A stretch of DNA of 64,000 bases. Source: a phage. This document shows positions 4,377-56,180 of the stretch, piece by piece. A program made the position numbers and the translations under genes. Below the pieces are notes generated by a model. It was not told the origin of the DNA and did no database searches. It saw only the letters and a program-made list of their open reading frames with translations. Position 1 is the first letter of the stretch; every line of letters starts with the position of its first letter. The stretch is from the NCBI GenBank assembly GCA_012813795.1, contig GCA_012813795.1_4087.1; one strand, written 5' to 3'.

Positions 4377-5123
4377 TTTGTATGATTTGAAACCTTCAGG
4401 TAAACCAGGTAGATTCTCTAACCCTGCGTTCGCACTCACTAGCTTTGCATCTTCGTTATCACTATAATCATCAGTAGCTAATTTGCGACCCAAATCACGA
4501 ACAAAGTTATCAATAATCTCTTCTTCATCCGTTCCTGGGTGACCTTCGGCTTTTAATTTCTTCCAAAAGTATTCATTGTAATCAAATACAAATTCTACTT
4601 CGTTTGTATCAGGATTCAAAATTACATCCAAATCAATCCAAGGCTCTTTACGTAATGTATAGATTTCCTTTGAATACTCTTGTTGTGTAATTTCATCATA
4701 CTTATACGCATACTCAATGGCTTTCAATCGTTTATCATCACCTTCAGGCATTAACTCGATTACTTCCATATCATACTCTTTTTGAGTAATAGTATCAGTA
4801 CTTAACTTTGCGTCAAGTACTTTTAAATCGTACTCTTCACGTGTAATCTTAGAGTACTTTAATTCGACAGCCGCCTGTTCAATTAGATATTTTAGTGTAT
4901 CTACAACACCATATTTCTTTTTAATATCCAATTGTGCAACATCAACTTCATATTCAGTAAGATATGTTAGTTCTGCAACTTTCAAATCTGCTTCATAATC
5001 GTCATTATAATAGTATGCTTTAGCAATCTCTTTCGCTTTACCAGAAAGTCCCCAATGGGCGGGGACCATCCAGAAAGGTAATAACCTTTTCTTAGCCATT
5101 TTTCTTTCCAAAGATTTCTTCAA
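4374..5123 (-). CDS. hypothetical protein with three SHOCT-like ITxxEY repeats
   Basis: repeats ITREEYDLKV / ITQKEYDMEV / ITQQEYSKEI; true start may be the internal Met at about 5099. Confidence 0.5.
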   Translation of the reverse strand: MKKSLERKMAKKRLLPFWMVPAHWGLSGKAKEIAKAYYYNDDYEADLKVAELTYLTEYEVDVAQLDIKKKYGVVDTLKYLIEQAAVELKYSKITREEYDLKVLDAKLSTDTITQKEYDMEVIELMPEGDDKRLKAIEYAYKYDEITQQEYSKEIYTLRKEPWIDLDVILNPDTNEVEFVFDYNEYFWKKLKAEGHPGTDEEEIIDNFVRDLGRKLATDDYSDNEDAKLVSANAGLENLPGLPEGFKSYK

Positions 5124-5391
5124 TTTTCATTACATAGTATGTATCTTCACCACCACCAAGATCTTCAGTCAGGGGGGTGTTCAGAGAAGAACGACCAAAA
5201 ACAACCATATCACCCTCACGAATGTTATGTTCAGCGATTTGACCATTTGGTAGTACTTTACCTTCACCAACAGAAATAACCATACCAACACATGGAGGCT
5301 CTACATTACCGAGGATAATACCACCAGTACTTTTGTTTTGTGCTTCAATCTGACGAACAAGAACATAATCGTTAATCATTTTTAGTTTCAT
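5092..5391 (-). CDS. GroES-like co-chaperonin (Cpn10; functional analog of T4 gp31)
   Basis: MKLKMINDYVLVRQ...KSTGGIIL...VISVGEGKVLPNGQ...IREGDMVVF aligns along E. coli GroES; GGAGG RBS 9 nt upstream of the ATG at 5391. Confidence 0.8.
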   Translation of the reverse strand: MKLKMINDYVLVRQIEAQNKSTGGIILGNVEPPCVGMVISVGEGKVLPNGQIAEHNIREGDMVVFGRSSLNTPLTEDLGGGEDTYYVMKIEEIFGKKNG

Positions 5392-24288: not shown

Positions 24289-24478
24289 AAGAACTTCTGG
24301 ATGATATGGAGTTGAATAAATCAGATATTAAAAATGCCCTTATGGATGCTGCTGTTTATGTAGATAATGTCGATTATGCAACTCTACTTAATATGCCAGT
24401 AAATGACAGAGATATGCTTATTAAGGCATACAATAAGAAAGTAAAGAAGATGAACGAGAAGCACTAATACTCATAAGA

Positions 24479-24510
24479 AGCCAGCACATTGTTGCTGGTT
24501 TTTTTGTTTT
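24479..24510 (+). terminator. rho-independent terminator after the 23401 gene
   Basis: CCAGCA-cattgt-TGCTGG followed by a long T-run. Confidence 0.7.
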
Positions 24511-25361
24511 TGTTTTTTGGGTTTTTACTTACAAAGTAGATGAAAGAAATTATGATCTTAAAAGATTTATTCTTGAAGGAATTCATTTGATTTATATTGA
24601 ACTCATCTAACTCATTTCATTCGTTAGCTGAAGAATATTCGTTAACTACGTTAACTCATATTCATTTTAATATAATTATAAAGAACTTTAAATGATTTAA
24701 TACTTGACGGGATTTGTTGAGGATATTTCATCCCCCCGCAGGGGAATGAAGATAATAAAAAAGAGACAATTAAGTCTCTGTTTCTTGACGCTGATGGCAT
24801 CGGTATTATTGTATTGCGAATTTCTTAAAATTTAAACGTAATTATATTGTAAAAATATTAAGAACGAAAGCGGGTTGCTCTGTTTCTCTCTATCGCAGTC
24901 ATGTGCAACGGTCGTCAGTCTTAAACATCCTGACACTCACCTGAAAGTCTATACAATCAAACTTCAGGCTGTTTAATGAAATGAATCATCAAACTCCCTT
25001 AGCAAATCTGGTAAGGTGCGATCCTTATACATCTATCGAGGAACTCTCTGTATGCTTATCGGAGTTCTTTATTGAGCCGTGTCGCCGTGAGGGGTTCATA
25101 ATATGCCCACATCTAACGGGTTTCTTTTGCTCATCGCACTGTTGAACTGCTCATCTACCCTCTACATTTTCGAGTGGATTAGGTTCTAATTTATATGCAT
25201 TTCTGCATTCAACAGGATTGTCAGTACTACATAAAACATTATAGCACGCAATTTAAAAGTGTCTCAAAATATCTAATCTTTTTTATAAAAAAGTACTTAA
25301 AAATTTCTTAGGAATGTATTTCATAAATATTTCATAAACTAACTTAGATCTAAGGCACATT

Positions 25362-40426: not shown

Positions 40427-40460
40427 TCAAATGAATGAACGAATTTATGGAGTCCTATAC

Positions 40461-43400
40461 ATGACTAATAATTTTAAGTTTCTACCAACTAAAACGGCAG
40501 AAGCAGTACAACAGAAGCTTTTCATTAAAAGATTACCTGAATGGATGCAAGGCTTAGAAGACATTCAAAAGGTTAGTGATGATGTAATTCAACAATGGTT
40601 CAATCCAGCGGATAATGAAATCGTTGATGGATATATTGGTGATATGGGTTCTCCTGCTGCATCTGCTAAGATTTTCCTTGACGAATCAACCGTTGAACGT
40701 CAGCTATATCAATTATCAACAGCATATGTGTCTCGTAATGATGACACAAGCATTCGTTCGCTTCAATTTTATGATGATTTGGTTGGCTACATGGAACACT
40801 ATGGCACGTTAACTTCAAACGAGAGCCGTCTATTTTCTGGTAAGTTCTATTCTTGGACACCACCAATTAACCCAAACAAAATGACCAACTATAGTTCTTA
40901 TTTGTGGGATAGTAAAAATAGTTTTGGTATCACATCACCTGACTTTATTGTTATGGAACGTGGTGCTGATAACGGTAACACTTGGTCACTACAGAACTTT
41001 TGGTATACTATTGGACAAACCCTAGAAGATGGTACAGTACTAACTGCTGACATGACGCAGGATACTCGTTTTATTCGTGCACAAGCACCAATCATCGAAT
41101 ATAATAAAAACATCGAATTAATCAACTACGGAACAAATTTCCGTGGTATTGTTGACCTATTCTCTGATACAGTTAAACCAGAAGATATCGTTCAAAAGGA
41201 CGTTAACGATGGTATTCGTATCGATGGTATCATTCCACAAGATGGTATGCGTATTCTATTCACCAGTATCGGTAACGTTGGTGAAAACAACCGCATTTAT
41301 AAAGTTTTTATAAAGAAAATGCAAGATGGTTCTCGTACCTATGGTTTGGCACTAGATCCTGACGAGGAATCAGAAGAACGCCCAAGTGGTGAACCCCATA
41401 ACGGTGATGTAATTTTGGTGCGTGATGGTAATGTATATAAAAATACATCCATGTACTGGAATGGTGTTGATTGGGTTAGAGCACAAACCAAATCTGGTAT
41501 CAACGTGTTCCCACAATTCCAATTGTATGACCGTGATGGTTTCAAATTAAACGACACTACTATGTATCCATCAAGTAATTTCGTTGGATCATCACTATTT
41601 GGTTTCAAAATTAACTATAATTATGGCACTGATAAAGTATACGGTTATAATATTGAATTAGGTAATTATAATTACTACATGTACGAAAACTTTCTTCAAA
41701 GTGTTCGTTATACATATGATCATTTGGGTGTTGAAACAGAAATTTCTGGATTATATTACTATAATGTAGTTGGTAAAGATAATGAACTTCACCTTAAGAC
41801 CGATTGGGTTCGCTCAAAGGAAGATTCAAAACAATTTGTTAAACAAACACCACAAATCGAACATACTGATATGTATCGTGTATTCAATACTGTATTTGAA
41901 ATGGAAAACTTCAAAACTCCATTAGAAGGTATGTATGCATATGTCATTGAAGTTGATCGTACCTATCAATATTACAAAGAAGAACGTCAAACCTATATGG
42001 ATTGGCATGTAATTAGTGGTGAAGGTATTCAAAGTGAACGTTTCAATCGCACATTTGAATTAGCCCAGAAAATTATTGATGGTAAGAGTACTGAAATCAT
42101 TGAAATTCAAGTTGATGGTGTGGATGTAACCGATTATACACGTCATGTATATAATAACAAGGTTCAAAGCATCACTTTAGGGGAAGACGTTACTCTTAAA
42201 GATGAATCAGTAATTCAAATTAGAACATATAGCAGTACGGAAGTACCAAATAAAGAGTTGGGTGCATATGAAATCCCAATTAACTTACAAAATAACCCAT
42301 ACAACGATAATATTCTTTATATCAACCAAAGTAATTTTACATTACATTTTAAAGATATCATTCAAAAGAATATTACCAGTGGTTCAGTTGATGATTTCAA
42401 TGACTACGAAGAGCGTTTGTCTAAAGGTTTAGTAGATAACTCTGTAGGTACTAAGATTATCCAAAACGAAGCATCTATGCTACCGTTAATGGCACATTCT
42501 GCAAATGAAGACATTGACCTATTTGAATCTGTATTGTTTATGCAATCAGAGTACTTTCGTTTTGTAAACAAGTTCAATACACAAATGATTCGTTTGTATA
42601 ATGAGAACCCAGCAAACTTCTTAGCTAATAATGCTTCTAATATTGTTGATGAAATTCTAACAATTATTAATATGGGTCATGATAATACATTCCCATTCTA
42701 TTATGACAACGTGGCAAGTACTTCTGGTTTCATTCGTGCTTTTGTACCACCAACTCCACAGTTCTTAGGTATTTTAAAAGCTCACGTTCCAGAAAAAGCA
42801 ACATTTTTGAATGCTGGTAGTAAGCAAAGCTGCTATAACATCAGCCATACTGGTGCAATCACCAAAGCATACCGTGTAATTAACGGTGTTGATAAAATGG
42901 ATGACGTTATATATGAATTAGAAAATCGAATCTTCAATAGTATTGATGTTATTTTCAAAGATGAAGATTACCAACCTAAGCTAGATGCTTCTGACCTTTT
43001 CCCTACTCCGTATTTTAGAGATACAGAGTATAATGATGAAGAGAAGAAGAACTTACTACTACGTGGTTACATTAACTTCATCGCAACCAATGGTATCAGT
43101 AACAGTTCGCATGATTATGATCCAAATAACTGGATGACTTGGAATTATACTGGAACTTATTACATTGTTAATGGTCAACAAACACAAATACCAGCACGTG
43201 GTTCATGGCGAGCAATCTACACTGACCAATTTGGTACATATCGCCCAGCAACCCATCCGTGGGAAATGTTTGGATTCTCCCAACGTCCGGTTTGGTGGAA
43301 CCAAGAGTACGAACCAACAGCAGTTCAAGTTGGTGAACGCGACAGTGATGTTGTTTATGTATATGAGGCATTGGTTCTCAACGAACAAGGTAACATGGTC

Positions 43401-46400
43401 CCTAGTGGGTTGTGGGATGTTGGTAATGAGAAAGGTGATAGCTCAACTGGAACTATCTTATTTGGTGCACGTAAAGGCCAATATGACAAGTATAAACGTT
43501 TTGGTACACAACCATTCAAGATCACCAAAACAGGCAAGCAGACTGCTTCTGGTGTTGATATTTGCGTTATTGAGTACATTGCACCTGAAGTATTAGGTCT
43601 TGTTTATGGTAGTTTGAATCATCGTGCTGAACCTTGGACCTATGGTGACATGGGTGACATGGAATTCACATACATGAACACCTCAATGTTCGCATATGAT
43701 GAATTAATGTTGTTATTCAAAGCTAAACCTGCACAATTCACCAACTATTTCTGGAATACTCGAAATAATACATTAAAAACTGTATCTGGTAACGAACCAC
43801 AGTTTTTATATGGTGATACTCGTTTACGTTTGAACTTTAACAGTGATACAATAGTACATGGTGAGAATAGCACTCGTGTTATTGGTTATCAAATGATTGT
43901 TAGTAACTATTTGATGTATCAAAACAAAAACATCACTACTAAGTACGGTGAAGTTGTTCGTTCTTCTCATATTAATGTTGGTCATAAACTAGGTGGATTC
44001 ACTAAAGCTGACCAATTAACATTTACGTCAGAAGCAACTGGTCTAATTTCACAAGAAAACCAATCTATCGGGTTAGTTCGTTCTAATAATATTAGAAATG
44101 AGCAAATGAGTGCAATTAAAATTACTTGGACTGGTAGTGCTTACCAAATTGATGGTTATGATTTAGTTTCTGCAACATTCAATTATAAATTGCCTGTTAA
44201 AAACGGTCATAAAGTAACTTTGAAAGTTGATAATCGTAATGTTGTTCATTATAATGAGTGGAAAAATGATGCATCAATCCCTTACGGAACTTTGATGAAT
44301 ACATTCCAAGAAGTTTACACATTTATTTGTGGTTATGGTGAGTATCTCAAACAACATGGTTGGATTTTTGAAGAAGTTGATGAATCTGGTATCCAACAGG
44401 ACTGGAATACAATTGCAAAAGACTTTTTAATCTGGAGTCAACAACAATTGAGTACTGGTGAATTCATTTCATGTACTCCATCTGCAATTAAAGCCAAATT
44501 TGGTACAGATTTTGGTTCAGTACAGTCAATTACACAAAATAGTGGTGGTGTTTGGTCACTATTAGATGATTCAAACCAAGGTATCCGTCAATTTGAGATT
44601 GAAACATCTCGTATTGGTAATATATTCACGGTGAGAACTACTGAAGAATCAAATAAACGCATGGCACTTATTCGTTTAAGTATCAGTTCATATGAACATG
44701 CTGTTATTTTTGATGATCAGACTATTTTCGGTGACTATATCTACGAACCAACCTATGGTGCAGTTCAAGAATTGATTAAATTGTATGGATATATCACTGG
44801 TTCATGGTCTGGTCGCTTACAAGCTCCTGGATTTATCATCCTAGAAGCTGGAACATTACCATCATTTGAAACATTGGTATCAAATTTCCAACAGTATTAT
44901 GATAATGAAACTCCAGTTAGTGATGTTCAATTGAATGAACTATCAAATCACTTAATTGGTTATCAGTCTCGCGATTACTTACAACGTATGATCACCAACG
45001 AGCCTGGTAGAATTGATTTCTATAAAGGTTTCATCCACGATAAAGGTACTAACCAAGTACTAGAAAAAGTACTACGTGTATCTAAATCATATAATACTGA
45101 TGAGTATAAAGCATTACAAGAATGGGCATTCCGAGTTGGTTCTTATGGTAACATTGATGGGGTTAAAAATCTTCAATTTAAACTAATTAATAATGAGTTT
45201 AAACAACAACCACAAATGATTTCGTTTGACCGCTATGCTGATAAGGTAGAGTCAGAGAATGAGATCGTATATTATGGTGAAATTGGTGAAGATTCACGCT
45301 GGATTAGTCGTCCTAAAGGTAAATTCTCATTACCTATGCGTAGTGGAAGAAGTGAGAACATCCAATTACCTAATATTGGCCCAGTAACCTTAGATGAAAT
45401 TGATTATACCACATTGAATTATGAAACGGCTAATCAAGATCGCATTAGTTACACGAATAACTTTGGCAAAATACCAACATCTGTTTGGATGTTCCAAGAT
45501 ATTAATAACGAATGGAATATATATGATTTGGTAGACACTGGTATTACAATGGTTTCCATTACACCAATAGAGAATAGCGACCCATATGCTGAGCAATATT
45601 GTAAAGTACTATTGTCTGATGACATCCCACTAATGGATGGTGATTATTACTATTTCGTTGATGAAACAAACTTTATGCCTGACGCACTACGTGAAGAAGG
45701 TCAATATTACACTTCTGGACTAAATCCAAAAGTTATGGTTGTGCCATTTGACACTTCTATCACTATTGACTTCTCAACTGTAGAATCAGCACCACGTTTG
45801 TATCGTTATGTTAGTAGATTCAGCACTCAACAAGAACGTGATGATTATATTGCTAAAAAATACAGTTACAGTGCACCTGAAAGTACTTTGTTTGACCGTC
45901 CTACTACGTATGATGAAAGAACAAACATCACTGCATTGTATTTGAATGTGTTTGACCCAATCAATGGTGTTATTCCTGGTGTAGCAATGCAAGATGTTGA
46001 TTTCATCTCCCCTGTTGATCCAGCACAATATAGCAGTAATGGTGAACTATTACAAGCATGGGGTGCTGAAAAGGTAGGTAAGGTATGGTGGAACACTAGT
46101 ACTGCATTCTATCTGGATTATACCCGTCCAATCTTTGATGAGGATGGAAACGTTGATGTAAAAGCAACTAATGAATATAAGCGTTATAATTGGGGTAAAT
46201 TATTACCACACAGTGTTATTGATGTTCTAGAATGGGTTAGTTCACCAGTAGAACCATACAACTGGGAAAAATATTGTGCAGAACAAGCCAATAAAAATAA
46301 AAACAACACCATGTATCTCCCAAGTGGGGTTGCGATGGATGATAACTATAGTTCATCTATGGAATATGATCCAATCACCGATACATATGTAGTTCGTTAT

Positions 46401-49400
46401 TATTTCTGGGTTCGTAATACAATTTATGTTCCACCAATGACTACTCGTAGTAAGTCTTGTACTGATATTGCACGTATTATTCAAGATCCAACACAATTGA
46501 ATGTTCCTTGGTTTGCACCTATTAACGAAAATAGTTTCATTCTAAGTAATATGCAATTTGAAGTTAATGATGATACAAGCATTTTGACAATTTCATATAG
46601 AAATGACAATATTGAAGTCCTGAAGCATGACCAATATCAACTTTGTAAAGAAGGTGATAGTTATGACTTTAACCCAGATATTTGGAATTCTCTATGGAAC
46701 TCACTAATTGGTCAAGAAACTACTTCAACTGGTGTTGTAAATGAAATAGTTTATCCTAAAGTTGAAACTGGTTTGGGTTCTAATAAAACTTGGTTCCAGA
46801 ATGTTATTGAAGCTCGTCGTGCGTTTGTTGAGAGTGCTAATAACTTTTACCGTTCACATAACATCACAACTAACAGTGTTGTTATGAATGATGTCTTTAA
46901 TGTTAAAACATTAAAAATGAACCCGAATGATATTACATTCCGTGTTCTATCATTTAACAATGAATTGGTAATTGCACCAGAAGACAACCGCTTCAAAGAG
47001 AATGATGCAGTATTTGTAAGTTCCATTGGAACATTACCAGCACCATTATCTTCAAGTTCTGTATATTTTGTTCACATTGATCCAAATGGATACATTCAAT
47101 TGATGAACAGTCCAAGCACAGTTGGTAGTACTGTCACAATCACTCTAGAAAATAGAGGCGAAGGTCAACACAAGATGATTAAACAAGCTGACTTCATTGA
47201 ATCACTTGGTACATCGTTGGATATGACACAGTACTGGAATCTAGCTGATTGGTACGATACTGGATACGATAGTAACACTGAATATACACAAGAAGTTAGT
47301 TTAGATGACGCAAACACTAAAAATTACCAAATTGGTGATATTATCCGTGTAACTGATAGTGATGGCGTTTGGACATTATACATCAAGACTGCATCTCGCA
47401 ATAATGTATACTGGAGAGCTATTGGACGTGAGAATAGTACTGTTGAATTGAATTCAATGTTATATTCTAGTTACAATGTTTATAATGATGATGGTTCTTT
47501 GAATTCTCATGAGGTTAACGTTCGTAATGCGTTAGCGTTGTTGAAAAATTCATTCGATTTATATCAAAGTAATATTGTATTTGATATGGTTAAGTACGTG
47601 CACACTGAACAAAGTGTTGTTGATTGGGTATTCAAAACCTCCTATATCTATATCGTAGGTTTGGAGCAATCACTAGTACAGAACTACTCAAATGACAACT
47701 TGATTAATCAAATTGTTGAGTACTTCGAGGAAGTTAAACCATACAGAACCAAAATCCGTTCTCAAATCGAACAGAAAACTTCTGATGATGATTTGATTAA
47801 TGGTATTAGTAATGACCTTGACCCAGATGGCTATATTTTAGTTGATGGTGTGTGGGTTAAGACTGAAAAAGACATTTGGGATTTAGAATATGCACAATTC
47901 AATGATGTAACTCAACGTTGGGAAAAGATTGGTTCACTACCAAGTGACTTTATCACACCTAATAGACGATTCCAAGAAATAGACGTTATTATGCATTATG
48001 ATAATATTCAATGTGAACAGTATGATAGTAATTATACAATTGATGAGTTGAAATCAACCAATAGTAAGTATCAATCCAACGAGGCTGATGTAGGTAATAA
48101 TTATGAATTACAGAGATATGTTTATACATTCCCTGAATATGATAATAATACCTTAATTTCACAAATTGGTATTGAAATGACTACCAAATATTCAGATTTG
48201 GATATTAGTAATGGTGTTATTAAAGGAATTGATGCATGGTATAAAGCACATTCAACTGATATCGCATCAACTGACCAATTTACTACTGATTTGGAGCAGG
48301 TAACTGCTGATACAAACAATAGTAATATTTTAGAAGATGTTAAAAAATATATTCAATATAATACATTAGCAACTCGTGTGAAAATGTTTAATAATATATC
48401 TGATGATATGGTTTCTAATGAGATTGGTTGTCCGTTTAAGGGTACAAACTATAATGATAATCCTAATACTCGCCTCCCATTCGGGTTTAGTGCAAGTAGT
48501 GATTATAACTATGGTTATTTTGAGATTAGTATTGAACTATATGAAAAATATGTCGATATGATCAAGAAAAATCACCCAGAGTTTACAAACGAAGACCAAA
48601 TTCGTAACATTCTTGAAATAGAATATGGTGTTTATTGCTACAAGTATGATACCACATTAAATGACCGTTATTATTCTGATACCGTTCATGTTTTATCTGC
48701 TATGCGACAAACATTTAATAAGAATATTCTAGATCATTATTATGTTGCTAGAGAAATCTTAAGTAATCGTTCAGTTGAGAAGTATGCTTTTGTTATGATG
48801 CCAAGAAAGTATGTGTATGTTGTGAATGCGGCGGGTGAATATCTACCGATTCCTGAAAGTTACAGCATATCTGATTTCATGGAAGACTTGTTCATAACAA
48901 CCGGAGAATCAGTTGTATTGGCTGAAATTGATTTAAATGATTTACCACAAGACCAGAATAATCCTATGTATTCTGCATACATTGAAGTACTGGAAAGTAT
49001 TAATACCGCGAAATATTTCAATGATATGAACGCATTCGATAACTTGGCATTGGAATCACAAACCAAGTCCATTAAATGGGAAGTTAAAGATAGTGAGATT
49101 GATCCTTATATCATCGACATTTCTGAACTAAACCCATCAGGAAGAACAATGGCACAATTGCGTTTCACTGTTGATGGTTATGGTTTCGATGAAGTTGCTC
49201 AAGAGCAATTAAAAGACACGAGTAGATTCCAAATTGAGGGTATGATCGTACAGAACCCTTACAATATGTCAGAAGCAATTGTAAGTATTCCATCATATGA
49301 TATTGTCATCGAGAATATGGGTAAAGATGTGTTTAAAGATTCAGAAAAATACTTCTTCCCAATTTCAGAAATTAAAACAATTACTGAAATCAAGGTTCAT

Positions 49401-50438
49401 GATGAAGGATTGAAAAATGGTGATAAGGTTGTGATTTTCACACCAGATGGTGAAGATTATGTACGATTCCAAGATGGTGAATGGGTAACTATACTAAGTG
49501 CTAGTAAAATCCAAACCTCCAAAAAACCAAAACTGTACACTGTGCGTGTATTGGGTAACGGAAACGTTGAGTTGGTTGATGGTAACGGTGTTGCATTGAT
49601 GTTTGATAGTGTAACTAAGCGTGAAAGTAATGAGCGTTTTTATACATTATCAATGAACTTAGTTAGAATCCGCACTTTCCAAGACCCTGAGTTTGATGAC
49701 AATGGCCTTAAACTATATGAAAATAATCGTCATTATAGTATACATGCATTGAACTATGAAGTATTCTATGACGAAACATTATATGGTGGTAAATTCAATG
49801 ATGGTATCACATCTGATGAGATTGATTTGTGGTTAGTTTCCAATGAGATTTTTGAAGTTGATGGTATTACAATTGATAATGGTTATAATCAACCAATCAC
49901 TGGTAAAGGTGTTCTAGGTGAACTAGTACGAGCTAAAATGACTGATGGTATTGAAATCACTGTATTTGAATACGATGTTGATGTTATTCAACCAGTACTA
50001 AGTTATGATCGCGTGTGGCAGTATGCACAACCAGTGGTCAATAACACGTTCATCAAAGAGGTAGGATGTAATGTTATTAACATTACAACTGTTGAAGATG
50101 AGGCAATCACTTATGTTGCTAAACCTCGTTCAATAAGCCCATATATCATTACTGATTCAGTACTGTCAGGTGCTGCGGCACAGAATGATGATATTATTGT
50201 GGTTGGATATGAGAAGGTTCAGGTAAGAAATACTGATCGTCTATTACGTGGTGTCATGTATAGTGCGGAGCATAATTTCACAAAAGGAACTTCTTATAGC
50301 TTCAATGGATTGAACTTAGGAAGCATTGATAAGTTTACTCAATATCAAAACTTCTATCCACCAATTCCATTAGAGACATTCAGAAATGGATTGTCAATTA
50401 CTGGAACCGATATCGAAAAACTTTTGAATATTCAATAA
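40461..50438 (+). CDS. giant virion structural protein (about 3325 aa) at the gp7 position
   Basis: single uninterrupted frame; GGAG RBS before the ATG at 40461 (first in-frame ATG at 40431 lacks an RBS); terminators on both sides. Confidence 0.8.
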   Translation: MTNNFKFLPTKTAEAVQQKLFIKRLPEWMQGLEDIQKVSDDVIQQWFNPADNEIVDGYIGDMGSPAASAKIFLDESTVERQLYQLSTAYVSRNDDTSIRSLQFYDDLVGYMEHYGTLTSNESRLFSGKFYSWTPPINPNKMTNYSSYLWDSKNSFGITSPDFIVMERGADNGNTWSLQNFWYTIGQTLEDGTVLTADMTQDTRFIRAQAPIIEYNKNIELINYGTNFRGIVDLFSDTVKPEDIVQKDVNDGIRIDGIIPQDGMRILFTSIGNVGENNRIYKVFIKKMQDGSRTYGLALDPDEESEERPSGEPHNGDVILVRDGNVYKNTSMYWNGVDWVRAQTKSGINVFPQFQLYDRDGFKLNDTTMYPSSNFVGSSLFGFKINYNYGTDKVYGYNIELGNYNYYMYENFLQSVRYTYDHLGVETEISGLYYYNVVGKDNELHLKTDWVRSKEDSKQFVKQTPQIEHTDMYRVFNTVFEMENFKTPLEGMYAYVIEVDRTYQYYKEERQTYMDWHVISGEGIQSERFNRTFELAQKIIDGKSTEIIEIQVDGVDVTDYTRHVYNNKVQSITLGEDVTLKDESVIQIRTYSSTEVPNKELGAYEIPINLQNNPYNDNILYINQSNFTLHFKDIIQKNITSGSVDDFNDYEERLSKGLVDNSVGTKIIQNEASMLPLMAHSANEDIDLFESVLFMQSEYFRFVNKFNTQMIRLYNENPANFLANNASNIVDEILTIINMGHDNTFPFYYDNVASTSGFIRAFVPPTPQFLGILKAHVPEKATFLNAGSKQSCYNISHTGAITKAYRVINGVDKMDDVIYELENRIFNSIDVIFKDEDYQPKLDASDLFPTPYFRDTEYNDEEKKNLLLRGYINFIATNGISNSSHDYDPNNWMTWNYTGTYYIVNGQQTQIPARGSWRAIYTDQFGTYRPATHPWEMFGFSQRPVWWNQEYEPTAVQVGERDSDVVYVYEALVLNEQGNMVPSGLWDVGNEKGDSSTGTILFGARKGQYDKYKRFGTQPFKITKTGKQTASGVDICVIEYIAPEVLGLVYGSLNHRAEPWTYGDMGDMEFTYMNTSMFAYDELMLLFKAKPAQFTNYFWNTRNNTLKTVSGNEPQFLYGDTRLRLNFNSDTIVHGENSTRVIGYQMIVSNYLMYQNKNITTKYGEVVRSSHINVGHKLGGFTKADQLTFTSEATGLISQENQSIGLVRSNNIRNEQMSAIKITWTGSAYQIDGYDLVSATFNYKLPVKNGHKVTLKVDNRNVVHYNEWKNDASIPYGTLMNTFQEVYTFICGYGEYLKQHGWIFEEVDESGIQQDWNTIAKDFLIWSQQQLSTGEFISCTPSAIKAKFGTDFGSVQSITQNSGGVWSLLDDSNQGIRQFEIETSRIGNIFTVRTTEESNKRMALIRLSISSYEHAVIFDDQTIFGDYIYEPTYGAVQELIKLYGYITGSWSGRLQAPGFIILEAGTLPSFETLVSNFQQYYDNETPVSDVQLNELSNHLIGYQSRDYLQRMITNEPGRIDFYKGFIHDKGTNQVLEKVLRVSKSYNTDEYKALQEWAFRVGSYGNIDGVKNLQFKLINNEFKQQPQMISFDRYADKVESENEIVYYGEIGEDSRWISRPKGKFSLPMRSGRSENIQLPNIGPVTLDEIDYTTLNYETANQDRISYTNNFGKIPTSVWMFQDINNEWNIYDLVDTGITMVSITPIENSDPYAEQYCKVLLSDDIPLMDGDYYYFVDETNFMPDALREEGQYYTSGLNPKVMVVPFDTSITIDFSTVESAPRLYRYVSRFSTQQERDDYIAKKYSYSAPESTLFDRPTTYDERTNITALYLNVFDPINGVIPGVAMQDVDFISPVDPAQYSSNGELLQAWGAEKVGKVWWNTSTAFYLDYTRPIFDEDGNVDVKATNEYKRYNWGKLLPHSVIDVLEWVSSPVEPYNWEKYCAEQANKNKNNTMYLPSGVAMDDNYSSSMEYDPITDTYVVRYYFWVRNTIYVPPMTTRSKSCTDIARIIQDPTQLNVPWFAPINENSFILSNMQFEVNDDTSILTISYRNDNIEVLKHDQYQLCKEGDSYDFNPDIWNSLWNSLIGQETTSTGVVNEIVYPKVETGLGSNKTWFQNVIEARRAFVESANNFYRSHNITTNSVVMNDVFNVKTLKMNPNDITFRVLSFNNELVIAPEDNRFKENDAVFVSSIGTLPAPLSSSSVYFVHIDPNGYIQLMNSPSTVGSTVTITLENRGEGQHKMIKQADFIESLGTSLDMTQYWNLADWYDTGYDSNTEYTQEVSLDDANTKNYQIGDIIRVTDSDGVWTLYIKTASRNNVYWRAIGRENSTVELNSMLYSSYNVYNDDGSLNSHEVNVRNALALLKNSFDLYQSNIVFDMVKYVHTEQSVVDWVFKTSYIYIVGLEQSLVQNYSNDNLINQIVEYFEEVKPYRTKIRSQIEQKTSDDDLINGISNDLDPDGYILVDGVWVKTEKDIWDLEYAQFNDVTQRWEKIGSLPSDFITPNRRFQEIDVIMHYDNIQCEQYDSNYTIDELKSTNSKYQSNEADVGNNYELQRYVYTFPEYDNNTLISQIGIEMTTKYSDLDISNGVIKGIDAWYKAHSTDIASTDQFTTDLEQVTADTNNSNILEDVKKYIQYNTLATRVKMFNNISDDMVSNEIGCPFKGTNYNDNPNTRLPFGFSASSDYNYGYFEISIELYEKYVDMIKKNHPEFTNEDQIRNILEIEYGVYCYKYDTTLNDRYYSDTVHVLSAMRQTFNKNILDHYYVAREILSNRSVEKYAFVMMPRKYVYVVNAAGEYLPIPESYSISDFMEDLFITTGESVVLAEIDLNDLPQDQNNPMYSAYIEVLESINTAKYFNDMNAFDNLALESQTKSIKWEVKDSEIDPYIIDISELNPSGRTMAQLRFTVDGYGFDEVAQEQLKDTSRFQIEGMIVQNPYNMSEAIVSIPSYDIVIENMGKDVFKDSEKYFFPISEIKTITEIKVHDEGLKNGDKVVIFTPDGEDYVRFQDGEWVTILSASKIQTSKKPKLYTVRVLGNGNVELVDGNGVALMFDSVTKRESNERFYTLSMNLVRIRTFQDPEFDDNGLKLYENNRHYSIHALNYEVFYDETLYGGKFNDGITSDEIDLWLVSNEIFEVDGITIDNGYNQPITGKGVLGELVRAKMTDGIEITVFEYDVDVIQPVLSYDRVWQYAQPVVNNTFIKEVGCNVINITTVEDEAITYVAKPRSISPYIITDSVLSGAAAQNDDIIVVGYEKVQVRNTDRLLRGVMYSAEHNFTKGTSYSFNGLNLGSIDKFTQYQNFYPPIPLETFRNGLSITGTDIEKLLNIQ

Positions 50439-50439
50439 C

Positions 50440-50475
50440 AAAAAAGGAGAGCCAATGGCTCTCCTTTTCTTTTTC
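50440..50475. terminator. bidirectional terminator between the giant gene and clpA
   Basis: AAAAA-GGAGAGCC-aat-GGCTCTCC-TTTTCTTTTTCTT. Confidence 0.75.
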
Positions 50476-52761
50476 TTACACTACAGATGGGGTTTTAACT
50501 TGACGCTTTGGTTTGATAGCCAATTTGCCGTTAATTACATCAAATGTTACGTTTCCACCATTTACCAGAGAACCACACAGCATTTCTTTAGCCAGAGGAA
50601 CACGGATATTTTGTTCAATGGTACGTTTCATTGGACGTGCACCCATTCCAGGCTGAACACCATTTGCTTCTAACCATTCACGGGCCGCTTTAGTAATAGT
50701 TACTTTCACGCCACGTTCTTTGATTTGTTCATTTAGACCAGCCATGAACTTATCGATAACACTTTGGATAGCTTCACTAGATAGCTCATTGAACTTCACG
50801 ATACTATCGATACGGTTTAGGAATTCAGGTGGTAGGAAAGCTTTCACTGCTTTCTCTTGTGCAGTTTCACCACCACTTAAACCCAGACTGCGTTTGTTTG
50901 CATCTGCTGCACCTAGGTTGGTAGTCATAATAACTGTTACGTTGTTAAAGTAAACAGTTTTACCTTGAGAACCAGTTAGATGACCTTCATCCAGAACCTG
51001 TAGGAAGGTTAGCAGTACTTTAGGGTGAGCTTTCTCAATTTCGTCCAGAAGTAGGACAGCATTTGGGAATTGCTCAATCTTATCCAACAGTAGACCATTA
51101 CCAGTGTCATGACCAACATAACCTGGAGGTGAACCAATTAGTTTTGCAACGGTATGTTCTTGTGAAAATTCAGACATATCGAAGCGAATCAGTTCAGACC
51201 CCATTGCATCTGCTAGTGCTTTGGTAATTTCAGTTTTACCAGTACCAGATGGACCGACAAACATGAATGCACCTTGAACACTTGCTTTCTCACGCAGACC
51301 TGCACGGGCAACCATTACGTTATCTACCAATTTCTCAACTGCTTCTTCTTGACCGAATACACGGCTACGAAGTGCTGCTGGTAGTGACTTCATGCGTTCA
51401 GTTTCAGTACATGCCACTACGTTGATATCCAAGTTTGCAATTCCAGAAACAACTTCTTGAATTGTGCGTAGTGAAATTACGTTATCAGAATCATCACGTG
51501 AACGTTTCTTAGCTGCTGCTGCATCCATCAGGTCGATTGCTTTGTCTGGGAAGTGCTTGTTCTTCAGGAACTTATCACTCAAAGACACAATCGCATCCAT
51601 TGCTTCAGCACTGAAAGTTACGTTATGGAATTTCTCATAAGTACCTTGTAGACCATTTACAATCGCACGAGTTTCTTCAATTGTTGGCTCAACTACGTCA
51701 ATTTTCATGAAACGACGAGTTAGTGCACTATCTTTCTCGATATTTTTACGGTATTCATCGTAAGTAGTTGCACCGATTACACGAATCTCACCACGAGATA
51801 GTGCTGGTTTCAACATATTACTCATGTCCATTGAGCCGTTGCTTGCAGAACCTGCACCAACCATGATATGGATTTCATCGATGAACACGATTGTATTTTC
51901 ACGCTTCTTCAGTTCTTTGAGAAGATTATCAATACGCTCTTCGAATTCACCACGGTACTTAGTTCCAGCAGTTAGTGCACCAACGTTGAGAGACAAAATC
52001 TCAATGTTTTGTAGATGTTCTGGTACATTACCATCAACGATTGCTTGTGCTAAACCATCAACAATCTGAGTTTTACCAACACCAGCTTCACCAGTAAGAA
52101 TAGCATTCTTTTTAGTTTTACGTGCTAATGTTTCAATCAGTGCGTCCAGTTCTTTTTGACGCCCAATCATTGGGTCCAGTTTGCCATCTTTAGCCAACTG
52201 TGTTAGGTTGGTCGTGTAATCTTCAATTGATTTCTGTTTTGATGCAGGTTGTTGTTGAGCCACCTTTTTCTCCCCAGTAGGTTCATCAGCGATGCTTTGT
52301 AGGTTAATTTCAGAATCAAGAGATTCTACATATTTCTGAAGAGTACGGGCCGCTTCAGTGCGAGTTACACCCTCTTCCAACAATGCTGCTTCTAATGCAG
52401 TGTTTGGGAATGACAAACATTCAAACAGTACAAAGAATGCATCAATTGAGAAATCGTCACGTTTGAGTTGTTCGATGACAGATTTCTTAGATAGTTCTTG
52501 CATTACACGATTGACGATTAGTGTAGTGCGATTAACTTCTTCCCCCATAGTGCTGCGTGGTGCGTGTGGAACATTGGTATTTTTCAGATATTCAATCAAG
52601 CGATCACGCACTTTCGTTGCGTCAACGTTCATTGTCCCAAATACATCAATAATGCTATCCACTGTCAGCACTGTAGCACTGATGTGATCGATTGTCAAGA
52701 AAGTATGACCCATAGAGGTTGCAAGGTCGTCGCTGCTTTTGAATAGCTGTGTTAAATTCAT
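50476..52761 (-). CDS. clpA: ClpA-type AAA+ unfoldase (Clp N-domain plus two AAA modules)
   Basis: Walker A GEAGVGKT and GPSGTGKTE; Walker B IVFIDEIH and LLLDEIEKAH; LTAGTKYRGEFEER; GSPPGYVGH; IGL-like loop SLGL; GGAGAG RBS. Confidence 0.9.
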   Translation of the reverse strand: MNLTQLFKSSDDLATSMGHTFLTIDHISATVLTVDSIIDVFGTMNVDATKVRDRLIEYLKNTNVPHAPRSTMGEEVNRTTLIVNRVMQELSKKSVIEQLKRDDFSIDAFFVLFECLSFPNTALEAALLEEGVTRTEAARTLQKYVESLDSEINLQSIADEPTGEKKVAQQQPASKQKSIEDYTTNLTQLAKDGKLDPMIGRQKELDALIETLARKTKKNAILTGEAGVGKTQIVDGLAQAIVDGNVPEHLQNIEILSLNVGALTAGTKYRGEFEERIDNLLKELKKRENTIVFIDEIHIMVGAGSASNGSMDMSNMLKPALSRGEIRVIGATTYDEYRKNIEKDSALTRRFMKIDVVEPTIEETRAIVNGLQGTYEKFHNVTFSAEAMDAIVSLSDKFLKNKHFPDKAIDLMDAAAAKKRSRDDSDNVISLRTIQEVVSGIANLDINVVACTETERMKSLPAALRSRVFGQEEAVEKLVDNVMVARAGLREKASVQGAFMFVGPSGTGKTEITKALADAMGSELIRFDMSEFSQEHTVAKLIGSPPGYVGHDTGNGLLLDKIEQFPNAVLLLDEIEKAHPKVLLTFLQVLDEGHLTGSQGKTVYFNNVTVIMTTNLGAADANKRSLGLSGGETAQEKAVKAFLPPEFLNRIDSIVKFNELSSEAIQSVIDKFMAGLNEQIKERGVKVTITKAAREWLEANGVQPGMGARPMKRTIEQNIRVPLAKEMLCGSLVNGGNVTFDVINGKLAIKPKRQVKTPSVV

Positions 52762-52869
52762 GTTCTCTCCTATGTGATTCTTCTCACTGTCATTAAAATC
52801 ATTATATCACATTCTTTCAGTTTGTCTACCTAGTAAATACAGATATACCGATTTATTTTGGAGAACAAA

Positions 52870-55715: not shown

Positions 55716-56180
55716 ATGAATGAGGCAGTAGGAGCAATATTTTTATCTAAAAGTACTGGTCATATGATGCTCAATCTTAGATCTGAAAGCAGTACCTATT
55801 CAAACAACTGGGCTTTTGTTGGTGGAAAACTCGAATACAACGAATCCCCTTTGCAAGCTTTACATCGTGAAATACGAGAAGAATTGGGAGATTCGTTACC
55901 TGATATAATTGATATTATACCCTTTGATGTATTTTGTACAAAGAATGGTAAGTTCAAATATTATTCTTTCGTTGTTGTTGTTGAAAATGAGTTTGTTCCT
56001 ATTCTCAATAAGGAAAGCTCTGGATATGCTTGGGTTAAAATTGGCTCATGGCCTAAACCACTACACCCTGGAGCTAAAAACACTTTATTAAATGTTAATT
56101 TGATGAAAGATTTTTATTCTTTGTGGGAAAGTATAAACGCTGGTACGCAATTTGTCAACAGCCTACCATATAGATATTAA
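55716..56180 (+). CDS. Nudix hydrolase
   Basis: Nudix box GGKLEYNESPLQALHREIREELG; AAGGAGG RBS. Confidence 0.85.
   Translation: MNEAVGAIFLSKSTGHMMLNLRSESSTYSNNWAFVGGKLEYNESPLQALHREIREELGDSLPDIIDIIPFDVFCTKNGKFKYYSFVVVVENEFVPILNKESSGYAWVKIGSWPKPLHPGAKNTLLNVNLMKDFYSLWESINAGTQFVNSLPYRY

Follow-up and report, generated by a model that had tools for sequence, protein, structure and literature searches.

A ClpA-type AAA+ unfoldase gene conserved in RaK2-like jumbo phages and its candidate role in a phage-encoded Clp protease

This report concerns a gene for a ClpA-like AAA+ unfoldase, carried on a stretch of phage DNA of 64,000 nucleotides (nt) (contig GCA_012813795.1_4087.1 of NCBI GenBank assembly GCA_012813795.1), which we call the window. 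The listing of open reading frames (ORFs) of the window gives the gene as an ATG-initiated ORF of 761 amino acids (aa) at 50476..52761 on the minus strand, and it is the sole minus-strand gene among plus-strand genes matching virion-protein families. It is convergent with a plus-strand gene of 3335 aa (stop at 50438) and divergent from another of 502 aa. These two neighbours match phrog_10938 and phrog_11591, respectively, and a third, of 447 aa, matches the gp15-like tail sheath stabilizer family. An earlier note, made from the sequence alone, had described a 761-aa minus-strand gene among plus-strand virion genes, and both the ORF and the PHROG matches of its neighbours agree with that description. 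Coordinates of all features are collected in Table 1.

Table 1. Features of the ClpA-like gene, its flanks and other genes of the window
Feature	Position	Strand	Basis or remark
GroES/Cpn10 co-chaperonin	5092-5391	-	Pfam PF00166, E = 5e-16
3335-aa virion structural protein	40431-50438	+	phrog_10938, full length; immediately convergent with the ClpA-like gene
Bidirectional intrinsic terminator	50442..50468	both	12-bp stem, 3-nt loop, T-runs on each strand
ClpA-like AAA+ unfoldase coding sequence, 761 aa	50476..52761	-	ORF, NCBIfam, PHROGs, PDB, AlphaFold2 model
D2 AAA+ module	50527..51399	-	Pfam AAA_2, ClpB_D2-small; motifs
D2 sensor 2 GARPMKR	50623-50643	-	motif alignment
D2 Arg finger PEFLNRID	50806-50829	-	motif alignment
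Putative ClpP-docking loop RSLGLSGG	50869..50892	-	aligns with E. coli ClpA KSIGLIHQ; LGL = aa 626-628, nt 50878-50886
D2 Walker B LLLDEIEKAH	51025-51054	-	motif alignment
D2 pore loop GSPPGYVGH	51109-51135	-	aligns with ClpA Y540
D2 Walker A GPSGTGKT	51232-51255	-	motif alignment
D1 AAA+ module	51442..52206	-	Pfam AAA, AAA_lid_9; motifs
D1 Arg fingers LTRRF	51709-51723	-	motif alignment
D1 Walker B IVFIDEIH	51868-51891	-	motif alignment
D1 pore loop KYRGEFE	51940-51960	-	aligns with ClpA Y259
D1 Walker A GEAGVGKT	52069-52092	-	motif alignment
Flexible linker between N-domain and D1, aa 151-185	52207..52311	-	predicted confidence (pLDDT) < 50 at 151-175; entropy 2.03 bits
N-terminal Clp_N-like domain, aa 1-150	52312..52761	-	NCBIfam/PDB alignment, AlphaFold2 model
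Ribosome-binding site AGGAGA	52766..52771	-	4 nt before ATG
Putative sigma-70-type promoter	52801..52828	-	TAGACA -35 (52823-52828), 16-nt spacer, GTGA-TATAAT (-10 at 52801-52806)
MutT/NUDIX hydrolase	55716-56180	+	phrog_1198, E = 2e-42; co-directional, inside the tail/baseplate block

At the DNA level the window is 96.4% identical to Escherichia phage A4 (ON286972, 355.5 kb, Asteriusvirus) and 77-80% identical to phages of the 121Q/PBECO4 type. The label 'T4-like' that it had been given is therefore imprecise: an identity of about 96% to A4 makes its source a RaK2-like jumbo phage of the genus Asteriusvirus, and the RaK2-like jumbo myoviruses are distant relatives of T4 (PMC5259590). A scan of the window for Rfam families and tRNAs found nothing.

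The best NCBIfam model for the protein is ClpA (TIGR02639, 761 bits), with residues 3-741 lying on model positions 5-733, and the models for ClpB, ClpV, ClpK and ClpG score lower, with alignments in two pieces. Searched with phmmer against PDB sequences, the protein has E. coli ClpA (1ksf) as its top match (E = 9e-180), in one collinear stretch over residues 17-741 (725 versus 715 residues), whereas the ClpB and ClpC alignments are split in two; the M-domain is therefore absent. No coiled-coil was found when one was sought in a structure predicted with AlphaFold2 (AF2) from a 29-sequence alignment (mean pLDDT 80.3). PHROGs assigns the protein, at E = 1e-302, to phrog_4871 ('ATP-dependent protease'), with residues 2-755 matched to positions 11-760 of a 764-position profile, Pfam matches are AAA, AAA_lid_9, AAA_2 and ClpB_D2-small, and the top Foldseek matches of the AF2 model are ClpC and ClpA chains in ClpCP and ClpAP complexes, with E down to 4e-63. 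The family proposed in the earlier note thus holds, profile searches placing ClpA above ClpB, ClpC and ClpX (TIGR02639, PDB phmmer).

Both AAA+ modules are complete, as had been claimed, with Pfam matches and all catalytic motifs present. In a motif alignment of the window protein with 29 homologues, the proteins of phages Cassandra and Atu_ph07, and E. coli ClpA, the Walker A and B motifs, pore loops, Arg fingers and sensor 2 show practically no variation within the RaK2-like clade, the aromatic residue of the D1 pore loop being Y or F; GPSGTGKT, RRFMK, NRID and GARPMKR are signatures of this clade. Judged by its motifs, the protein is an intact and, by prediction, catalytically competent class-I Hsp100 of the ClpA type. 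The Pfam Clp_N match of the N-terminal domain is below threshold (E = 0.0013, 19.3 bits against a cut-off of 20.7), orthologues of the protein have precomputed PF02861 matches, the NCBIfam alignment starts at residue 3, and the AF2 model has eight helices within residues 3-148, followed by a disordered linker. The Pfam score alone is insufficient, and it is the cumulative support of profiles and model that predicts a Clp_N double-repeat domain and bears out the Clp N-domain described earlier. This domain is the most variable folded part of the protein in the clade (mean entropy 1.60 bits versus ~0.8 bits in the AAA+ modules), and the entropy of the linker that follows exceeds that of every other internal segment.

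Among known cellular systems, the protein is comparable to E. coli ClpA, the unfoldase of ClpAP with its adaptor ClpS. Like ClpA, it has an N-domain, the D1 and D2 motifs with their pore-loop tyrosines, and no M-domain, and its putative docking loop agrees with that of ClpA in length and position. Identity to E. coli ClpA is 46-48% over D1-D2 in a structure-based alignment and ~40% overall. The differences lie in the N-domain, which is very divergent (ClpA E23, for example, is T), and in the docking tripeptide, LGL against IGL. ClpC of Firmicutes and Actinobacteria and ClpB/Hsp104 share the class-I Hsp100 architecture and give strong Foldseek and phmmer matches, but ClpC and ClpB have an M-domain inserted in D1 that the window protein lacks, and ClpB/Hsp104 has no ClpP-docking loop, unlike the window protein, which accordingly is not a ClpB/Hsp104. 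Full-length ClpA-type proteins also occur in PA5oct and Cassandra (Wroclawvirus), Atu_ph07 (Agrobacterium) and Phosso (Sinorhizobium), again near virion or tail genes and in genomes that encode ClpP and ClpS as well. They are ~40% identical to the window protein and no closer to it than cellular ClpAs are; indeed, all pairs among the RaK2-like, PA5oct-like and Atu_ph07 ClpAs are ~40-44% identical. The proteins of the Cassandra/Atu_ph07 type have a canonical IGF and the cellular-type GPTGxGKT and RRFQ/N, and their genes, unlike that of the window, are co-directional with their neighbours.

Within the RaK2-like phages the gene is a constant. Its A4 orthologue, A4_579, is annotated 'ClpA-like protein' and has 99.3% amino-acid identity to the window protein; identity is 85% for the 121Q type, 74% for RaK2 and 60% for GAP32 and CBB, where the family is represented by 121Q gp581, RaK2 ORF069, GAP32_229 and CBB_235. 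A tblastn search yielded 93 phage records spanning at least 80% of the protein, and the gene was found in ~70 RaK2-like phage genomes; all relatives examined have it. Synteny is identical in A4, RaK2, GAP32 and CBB, phages from three genera: baseplate wedge gene, structural gene of ~3330 aa, ClpA-like gene on the opposite strand, structural gene, gp15-like gene and NUDIX gene. The window gene has the length, synteny, and promoter and terminator layout of the other phrog_4871 members, and differs from them only by its docking tripeptide and small sequence changes. No match to the gene was found in complete RefSeq E. coli genomes. Proteins 99-100% identical to the window protein do occur on contigs of 351-359 kb that bear the name 'Escherichia coli', an O157 record among them, and that look like whole jumbo phage genomes inside bacterial isolate assemblies.

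Because of this identical synteny and the ~70 genomes, we regard the gene as a core gene and not as a recent insert, and the comparisons indicate that it is vertically inherited in the RaK2-like jumbo phages. The earlier note had likened it to an acquired cassette and had placed ClpA-class unfoldases outside the T4-like core set; rarity is contradicted by the abundance of the gene in the window's own clade, and commonness among related phages was an outcome that the note itself had named as refuting its view. A cassette recently acquired from a host (a moron), incidental to core phage biology, would agree with the opposite strand, with the gene's own promoter, ribosome-binding site and terminator, and with its GC content (0.413, versus a window mean of 0.362), but comparable GC peaks stand at other positions of the window, the terminator is on one flank only, and promoter and terminator are both conserved, the terminator with compensatory changes. 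Nor is there a recent donor: identity is ~40% to all the cellular ClpAs compared (E. coli, Legionella and others), and likewise to Cassandra and Atu_ph07, while the E. coli and Legionella ClpAs are 65% identical to each other. The ClpA of the host is included in this equidistance, and the signatures GPSGTGKT, RRFMK and GARPMKR are specific to the clade. With one layout over three genera and a PHROG family of its own, the cassette explanation is effectively refuted.

The expression signals were examined in the same relatives. The gene has its own ribosome-binding site, as previously noted, AGGAGA at 4 nt from the ATG, the core of which is GGAG in A4, GAP32 and CBB and GGA in RaK2. The putative promoter upstream scores 11/12, with TG, in a consensus scan, and an extended -10 TGnTATAAT precedes the gene in all five sequences (the window, A4, RaK2, GAP32 and CBB). 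Across the 295 kb of A4 sequence examined, both strands included, TAGACA-N12-GTGATATAAT is confined to two sites, one preceding clpP and the other the clpA-like gene. GTGATATAAT by itself occurs there 16 times, always on the strand with most non-structural genes; the ClpA-like gene lies on this same strand, which explains its 'opposite-strand' appearance. In RaK2, TTGACA/extended -10 promoters precede both clpA-like and clpP genes. The promoter of the GAP32 and CBB ClpA-like genes (TGGAACG ... TGTGCTATAAT) fits a class called 'divergent RpoD-like' and linked in the CBB study to DNA-synthesis genes; the late motif of structural genes, ATAAATA, is a different one (PMC5259590). At the 3' end, the terminator hairpin lies between the convergent stops at 50438 and 50476 and is kept in RaK2, GAP32 and CBB with compensatory changes in the stem. 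The 96-nt 5' flank (52762-52857) contains no hairpin and is a divergent promoter region, so that of the two bidirectional terminators said to bracket the gene, only the 3' one exists.

Two observations on other promoters may be added here. The annotated start of RaK2_00489 (ClpP), 300100, falls within a TTGACA-16-TGtTACAAT promoter (RaK2 299930-300160), and as homology starts at the ATG at 300148 the annotation of this coding sequence probably reaches too far in the 5' direction. In A4, a tandem of two TTGACA-N-GTGATATAAT promoters, which belong to the extended -10 class of the clpA-like and clpP genes, stands at 153530-153650 before A4_560 ('ATPase') and A4_561 ('VWA domain-containing protein'); these two genes may be another AAA+/VWA pair.

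A4 also encodes a peptidase of the Clp type. A4_455 (231 aa) is a ClpP (Pfam CLP_protease, 7.7e-42; solved ClpPs, 1e-37) and not the capsid maturation protease, which is A4_8; the Ser-His-Asp triad is intact in all eight phage ClpPs examined. Its orthologues at 60% identity or more number 70 records, in the same phage genera as the ClpA-like gene. This likely partner is unlike E. coli ClpP: identity is ~36%, the phage ClpPs have an additional conserved C-terminal extension of ~25 aa, and the docking pocket is remodelled, retaining Y62, I90 (I/V), M92 (M/L) and L189 (I/L). That enterobacterial RaK2-like phages had lost ClpP was considered, as none of them stood among the best 60 tblastn matches of E. 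coli ClpP, and rejected, A4_455 and its orthologues being divergent ClpPs. A ClpS-like adaptor is encoded as well. A4_74 (181 aa) alone matches ClpS weakly (Pfam 20.3 bits against a cut-off of 23; PDB E = 0.3), and a profile of five A4_74-type sequences finds solved ClpS structures at 2e-8; each of the five members matches Pfam ClpS, the best at E = 7e-11. This ClpS-like gene has 72 records, all RaK2-like, and its product has extra N- and C-terminal regions and does not conserve the position of E. coli ClpS His66.

Published virion proteomics separates the ClpA-like protein from its neighbours. In phage CBB, electrospray ionization tandem mass spectrometry (ESI-MS/MS) detected CBB_233, 234, 236 and 237 with 12-21 peptides each, CBB_236, the orthologue of the 3335-aa protein, with 21, and CBB_235, the ClpA-like protein, is absent from the list (PMC5259590).

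The element that would link unfoldase and peptidase is the loop at the base of D2. In E. coli ClpA, I617-G618-L619 insert in a hydrophobic pocket of ClpP (bioRxiv 10.1101/820209), and the published docking consensus is (L/I/V)-G-(F/L) (PMC8745299). The S-LGL of the window protein aligns exactly with S616-I617-G618-L619, its LGL falls within the consensus, and residues 624-630 have pLDDT < 50 in the AF2 model, as a flexible loop would.

From these elements we propose, with slightly better than even confidence, that the window gene supplies the ATPase for a ClpAP(S) protease of the phage's own, being a core-gene unfoldase whose catalytic competence and partnership are both predicted from sequence. 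In the early or middle phase, host RNA polymerase would use the gene's own extended -10 promoter of the sigma-70 type, which would account for a strand opposite to that of the late structural neighbours, and the protein, a non-virion one, would assemble as hexamers. The N-domain would take in substrates, possibly through the phage ClpS-like adaptor; these would be threaded through the D1/D2 pore to the phage-encoded ClpP, on which the LGL loops would dock. ClpA-like protein, ClpP and ClpS-like protein would together form one protease, whose candidate substrates are proteins of the host, defence proteins or factors of phage assembly. The motor part of this mechanism is well supported; the partnership of ClpA with ClpP is suggested by co-occurrence, a shared promoter and retention of the loop. 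A bolder version, which we think less likely than not, is an orthogonal, phage-private ClpA-ClpP-ClpS protease, whose interface, with its shifting tripeptide, altered pocket and C-terminally extended ClpP, would have drifted or co-evolved away from the pair of IGF/L and its hydrophobic pocket so as to be insulated from the host Clp network, and whose divergent ClpS-like protein would choose early takeover or anti-defence substrates.

Several observations weigh against the protease. The protein scores below the NCBIfam equivalog cut-offs (761 versus 993.15 bits for TIGR02639, 654 versus 1350 for NF008263), and is thus too divergent for a ClpA equivalog call. The docking tripeptide is not conserved among orthologues in the alignment with 29 homologues: it is LGL in the window and A4, IGM in the 121Q type and JNE01, IGV in RaK2, LGM in GAP32, VGM in Erwinia phages, MGM in XbC2, VGF in XaC1, MNM in 7t3, and IGA, IGG, LGH, LGF or IGL in metagenomic relatives, as compared with IGF or IGL in cellular ClpAs, Cassandra and Atu_ph07. 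Many clade members are thereby off the consensus (IGM, IGV, IGA, IGG, LGH, MNM), and entropy is 0.43 bits at the Gly and 2.31 bits at the third residue, the 94th percentile within D2. The SLGL identified earlier as a ClpP-docking loop therefore stands as far as its alignment with the ClpA loop goes, and fails on conservation. On the ClpP side, Y60 is replaced by T/V/S, F82 by S/Y/N/C and L114 by G, with F112 as L/F, and covariation of loop and pocket, sought in six phage lineages, gave no clean pattern in this small sample. The clpA-like, clpP and clpS-like genes are dispersed at three loci and form no operon, and the latter two lie outside the window; we infer their presence in its own genome from A4, at 96% identity. 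Conservation of the shared promoter in GAP32 was rejected, clpP having no promoter of its own there and abutting the upstream gene, and the early or middle timing is a prediction from promoter sequence. CBB_104 (ClpP) was detected in CBB virions by a single peptide (4.5% coverage; PMC5259590), and the record of PA5oct gp212 (ClpP), named 'head maturation protease', carries an 'ESI-MS/MS' note; as ClpP is thus detected in virions and ClpA is not, the two may have separate roles. The main text of the PA5oct paper makes no mention of Clp, and the RaK2 genome paper none of Clp or promoters. The contact of ClpA with ClpP is itself predicted, and a relaxed tripeptide with a remodelled pocket would also fit a chaperone independent of ClpP.

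E. coli ClpA alone remodels RepA, and the window protein might likewise act without ClpP, as an unfoldase or assembly chaperone for morphogenetic proteins such as the 3335-aa protein, tail fibres or scaffolds. Its position inside the baseplate/tail module, kept in A4, RaK2, GAP32 and CBB, would suit this role, as would the relaxed third tripeptide position (IGG, IGA, MNM) and the further chaperone genes, GroES in the window and, in A4, another GroES together with a DnaJ zinc-finger-like protein. The Cassandra and Atu_ph07 homologues adjoin virion or tail-fibre genes, with a DnaJ neighbour in Atu_ph07, and Iyer et al. proposed that jumbo phage ClpA and ClpX are translocases or aids to virion assembly (PMC7824862). 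However, the loop is as long as in ClpA, keeps the conserved Gly and starts its tripeptide with a hydrophobic residue, and it is not deleted, unlike in ClpB; a catalytically intact phage ClpP consistently co-occurs; in A4 the two genes have a unique promoter in common; and this promoter is outside the late class of structural genes. Moreover, a conserved pair of ClpA and giant structural protein reaching to PA5oct-like phages was considered and rejected: the 3335-aa protein and the 2236-aa neighbour in Cassandra are not homologous (E = 0.21), so that no conserved gene pair extends beyond the RaK2-like clade. We judge a purely ClpP-independent chaperone somewhat unlikely.

The earlier note had suggested that the unfoldase redirects the ClpP of the host, docking on it through LGL and turning proteolysis towards host or defence proteins. 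LGL does lie within the (L/I/V)-G-(F/L) consensus, the pocket of E. coli ClpP is canonical and takes IGL and IGF loops (bioRxiv 10.1101/820209), and an early or middle promoter would suit takeover. The phage lineage has its own ClpP and ClpS-like proteins, however, and identity to host ClpA is just ~40%. Enterobacterial ClpP is nearly invariant, yet phages of Escherichia, Klebsiella, Salmonella, Cronobacter and Erwinia have LGL, IGM, IGV, MNM, LGM and VGM, which means that no host pocket keeps the loop constant. Hijack of host ClpP, weakened by the varying loop and the phage's own ClpP, ranks last of the three functional readings, and we consider it quite unlikely.

The gene, its family and its conservation are already known from GenBank annotations, PHROGs and at least two papers, one of which counts ClpA as an AAA+ chaperone of the jumbo phages in group 2.2 (PMC7824862), and the gene as such therefore adds little. 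A literature search found no biochemical test of any phage ClpA, ClpP or ClpS. Incremental here are the variability of the tripeptide, the pocket changes and C-terminal extension of the phage ClpPs, the A4 promoter variant specific to clpA-like and clpP genes, and the explicit non-virion status in CBB. These observations, with the relaxed tripeptide set against invariant motor motifs, make the function of the trio a question testable with a few recombinant proteins. If the trio is a self-contained protease with its own docking interface, it would be a natural orthogonal AAA+ protease and, if the mechanism is true, a way of studying how the host proteome is reshaped by jumbo phages or how these phages govern their assembly.

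Other genes of the window and of A4 touch on the same theme. Besides the GroES gene of the window, the A4 annotation includes another GroES (A4_86) and a zinc-finger-like protein of the DnaJ type, 75 aa long (A4_448); with ClpA, ClpP and the ClpS-like protein these make a sizeable phage proteostasis toolkit. The NUDIX gene downstream of the gp15-like gene keeps its position in A4, RaK2, GAP32 and CBB, and its product is absent from the CBB virion list. Going from the GroES region to the non-coding element described below (~5.4-24.4 kb), the offset of window against A4 coordinates shifts by ~730 bp, so that an insertion in the window or a deletion in A4 must lie within that interval.

A stretch of ~900 bp at 24468-25361 (core ~24855-25200) has no ORF of more than 55 aa and is conserved at the nucleotide level throughout the clade (70 records; in GAP32, CBB and Erwinia phages identity is still 68-72%). 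There are four to five copies per genome, mostly unannotated, with paralogues in A4 at ~125.8-126.4 kb and ~65.2-65.6 kb and orthologues in CBB, Munch and pEa_SNUABM_50. An Rfam search of the element gave no match even at E <= 1. In the alignment, invariant blocks alternate with indel-rich arms. RNAalifold predicts 63 pairs and compensatory double changes in 19 of these; the share of paired cells is 94.1%, versus 85.4 +/- 1.0 in shuffles (0/500), and the covariation score is 0.335, versus 0.05-0.09 in slid controls. The minus-strand fold likewise shows covariation, and upstream of the element the plus strand has two conserved TTGACG motifs. The element is a candidate for a new structured RNA family, and in novelty it may exceed the ClpA-like gene.

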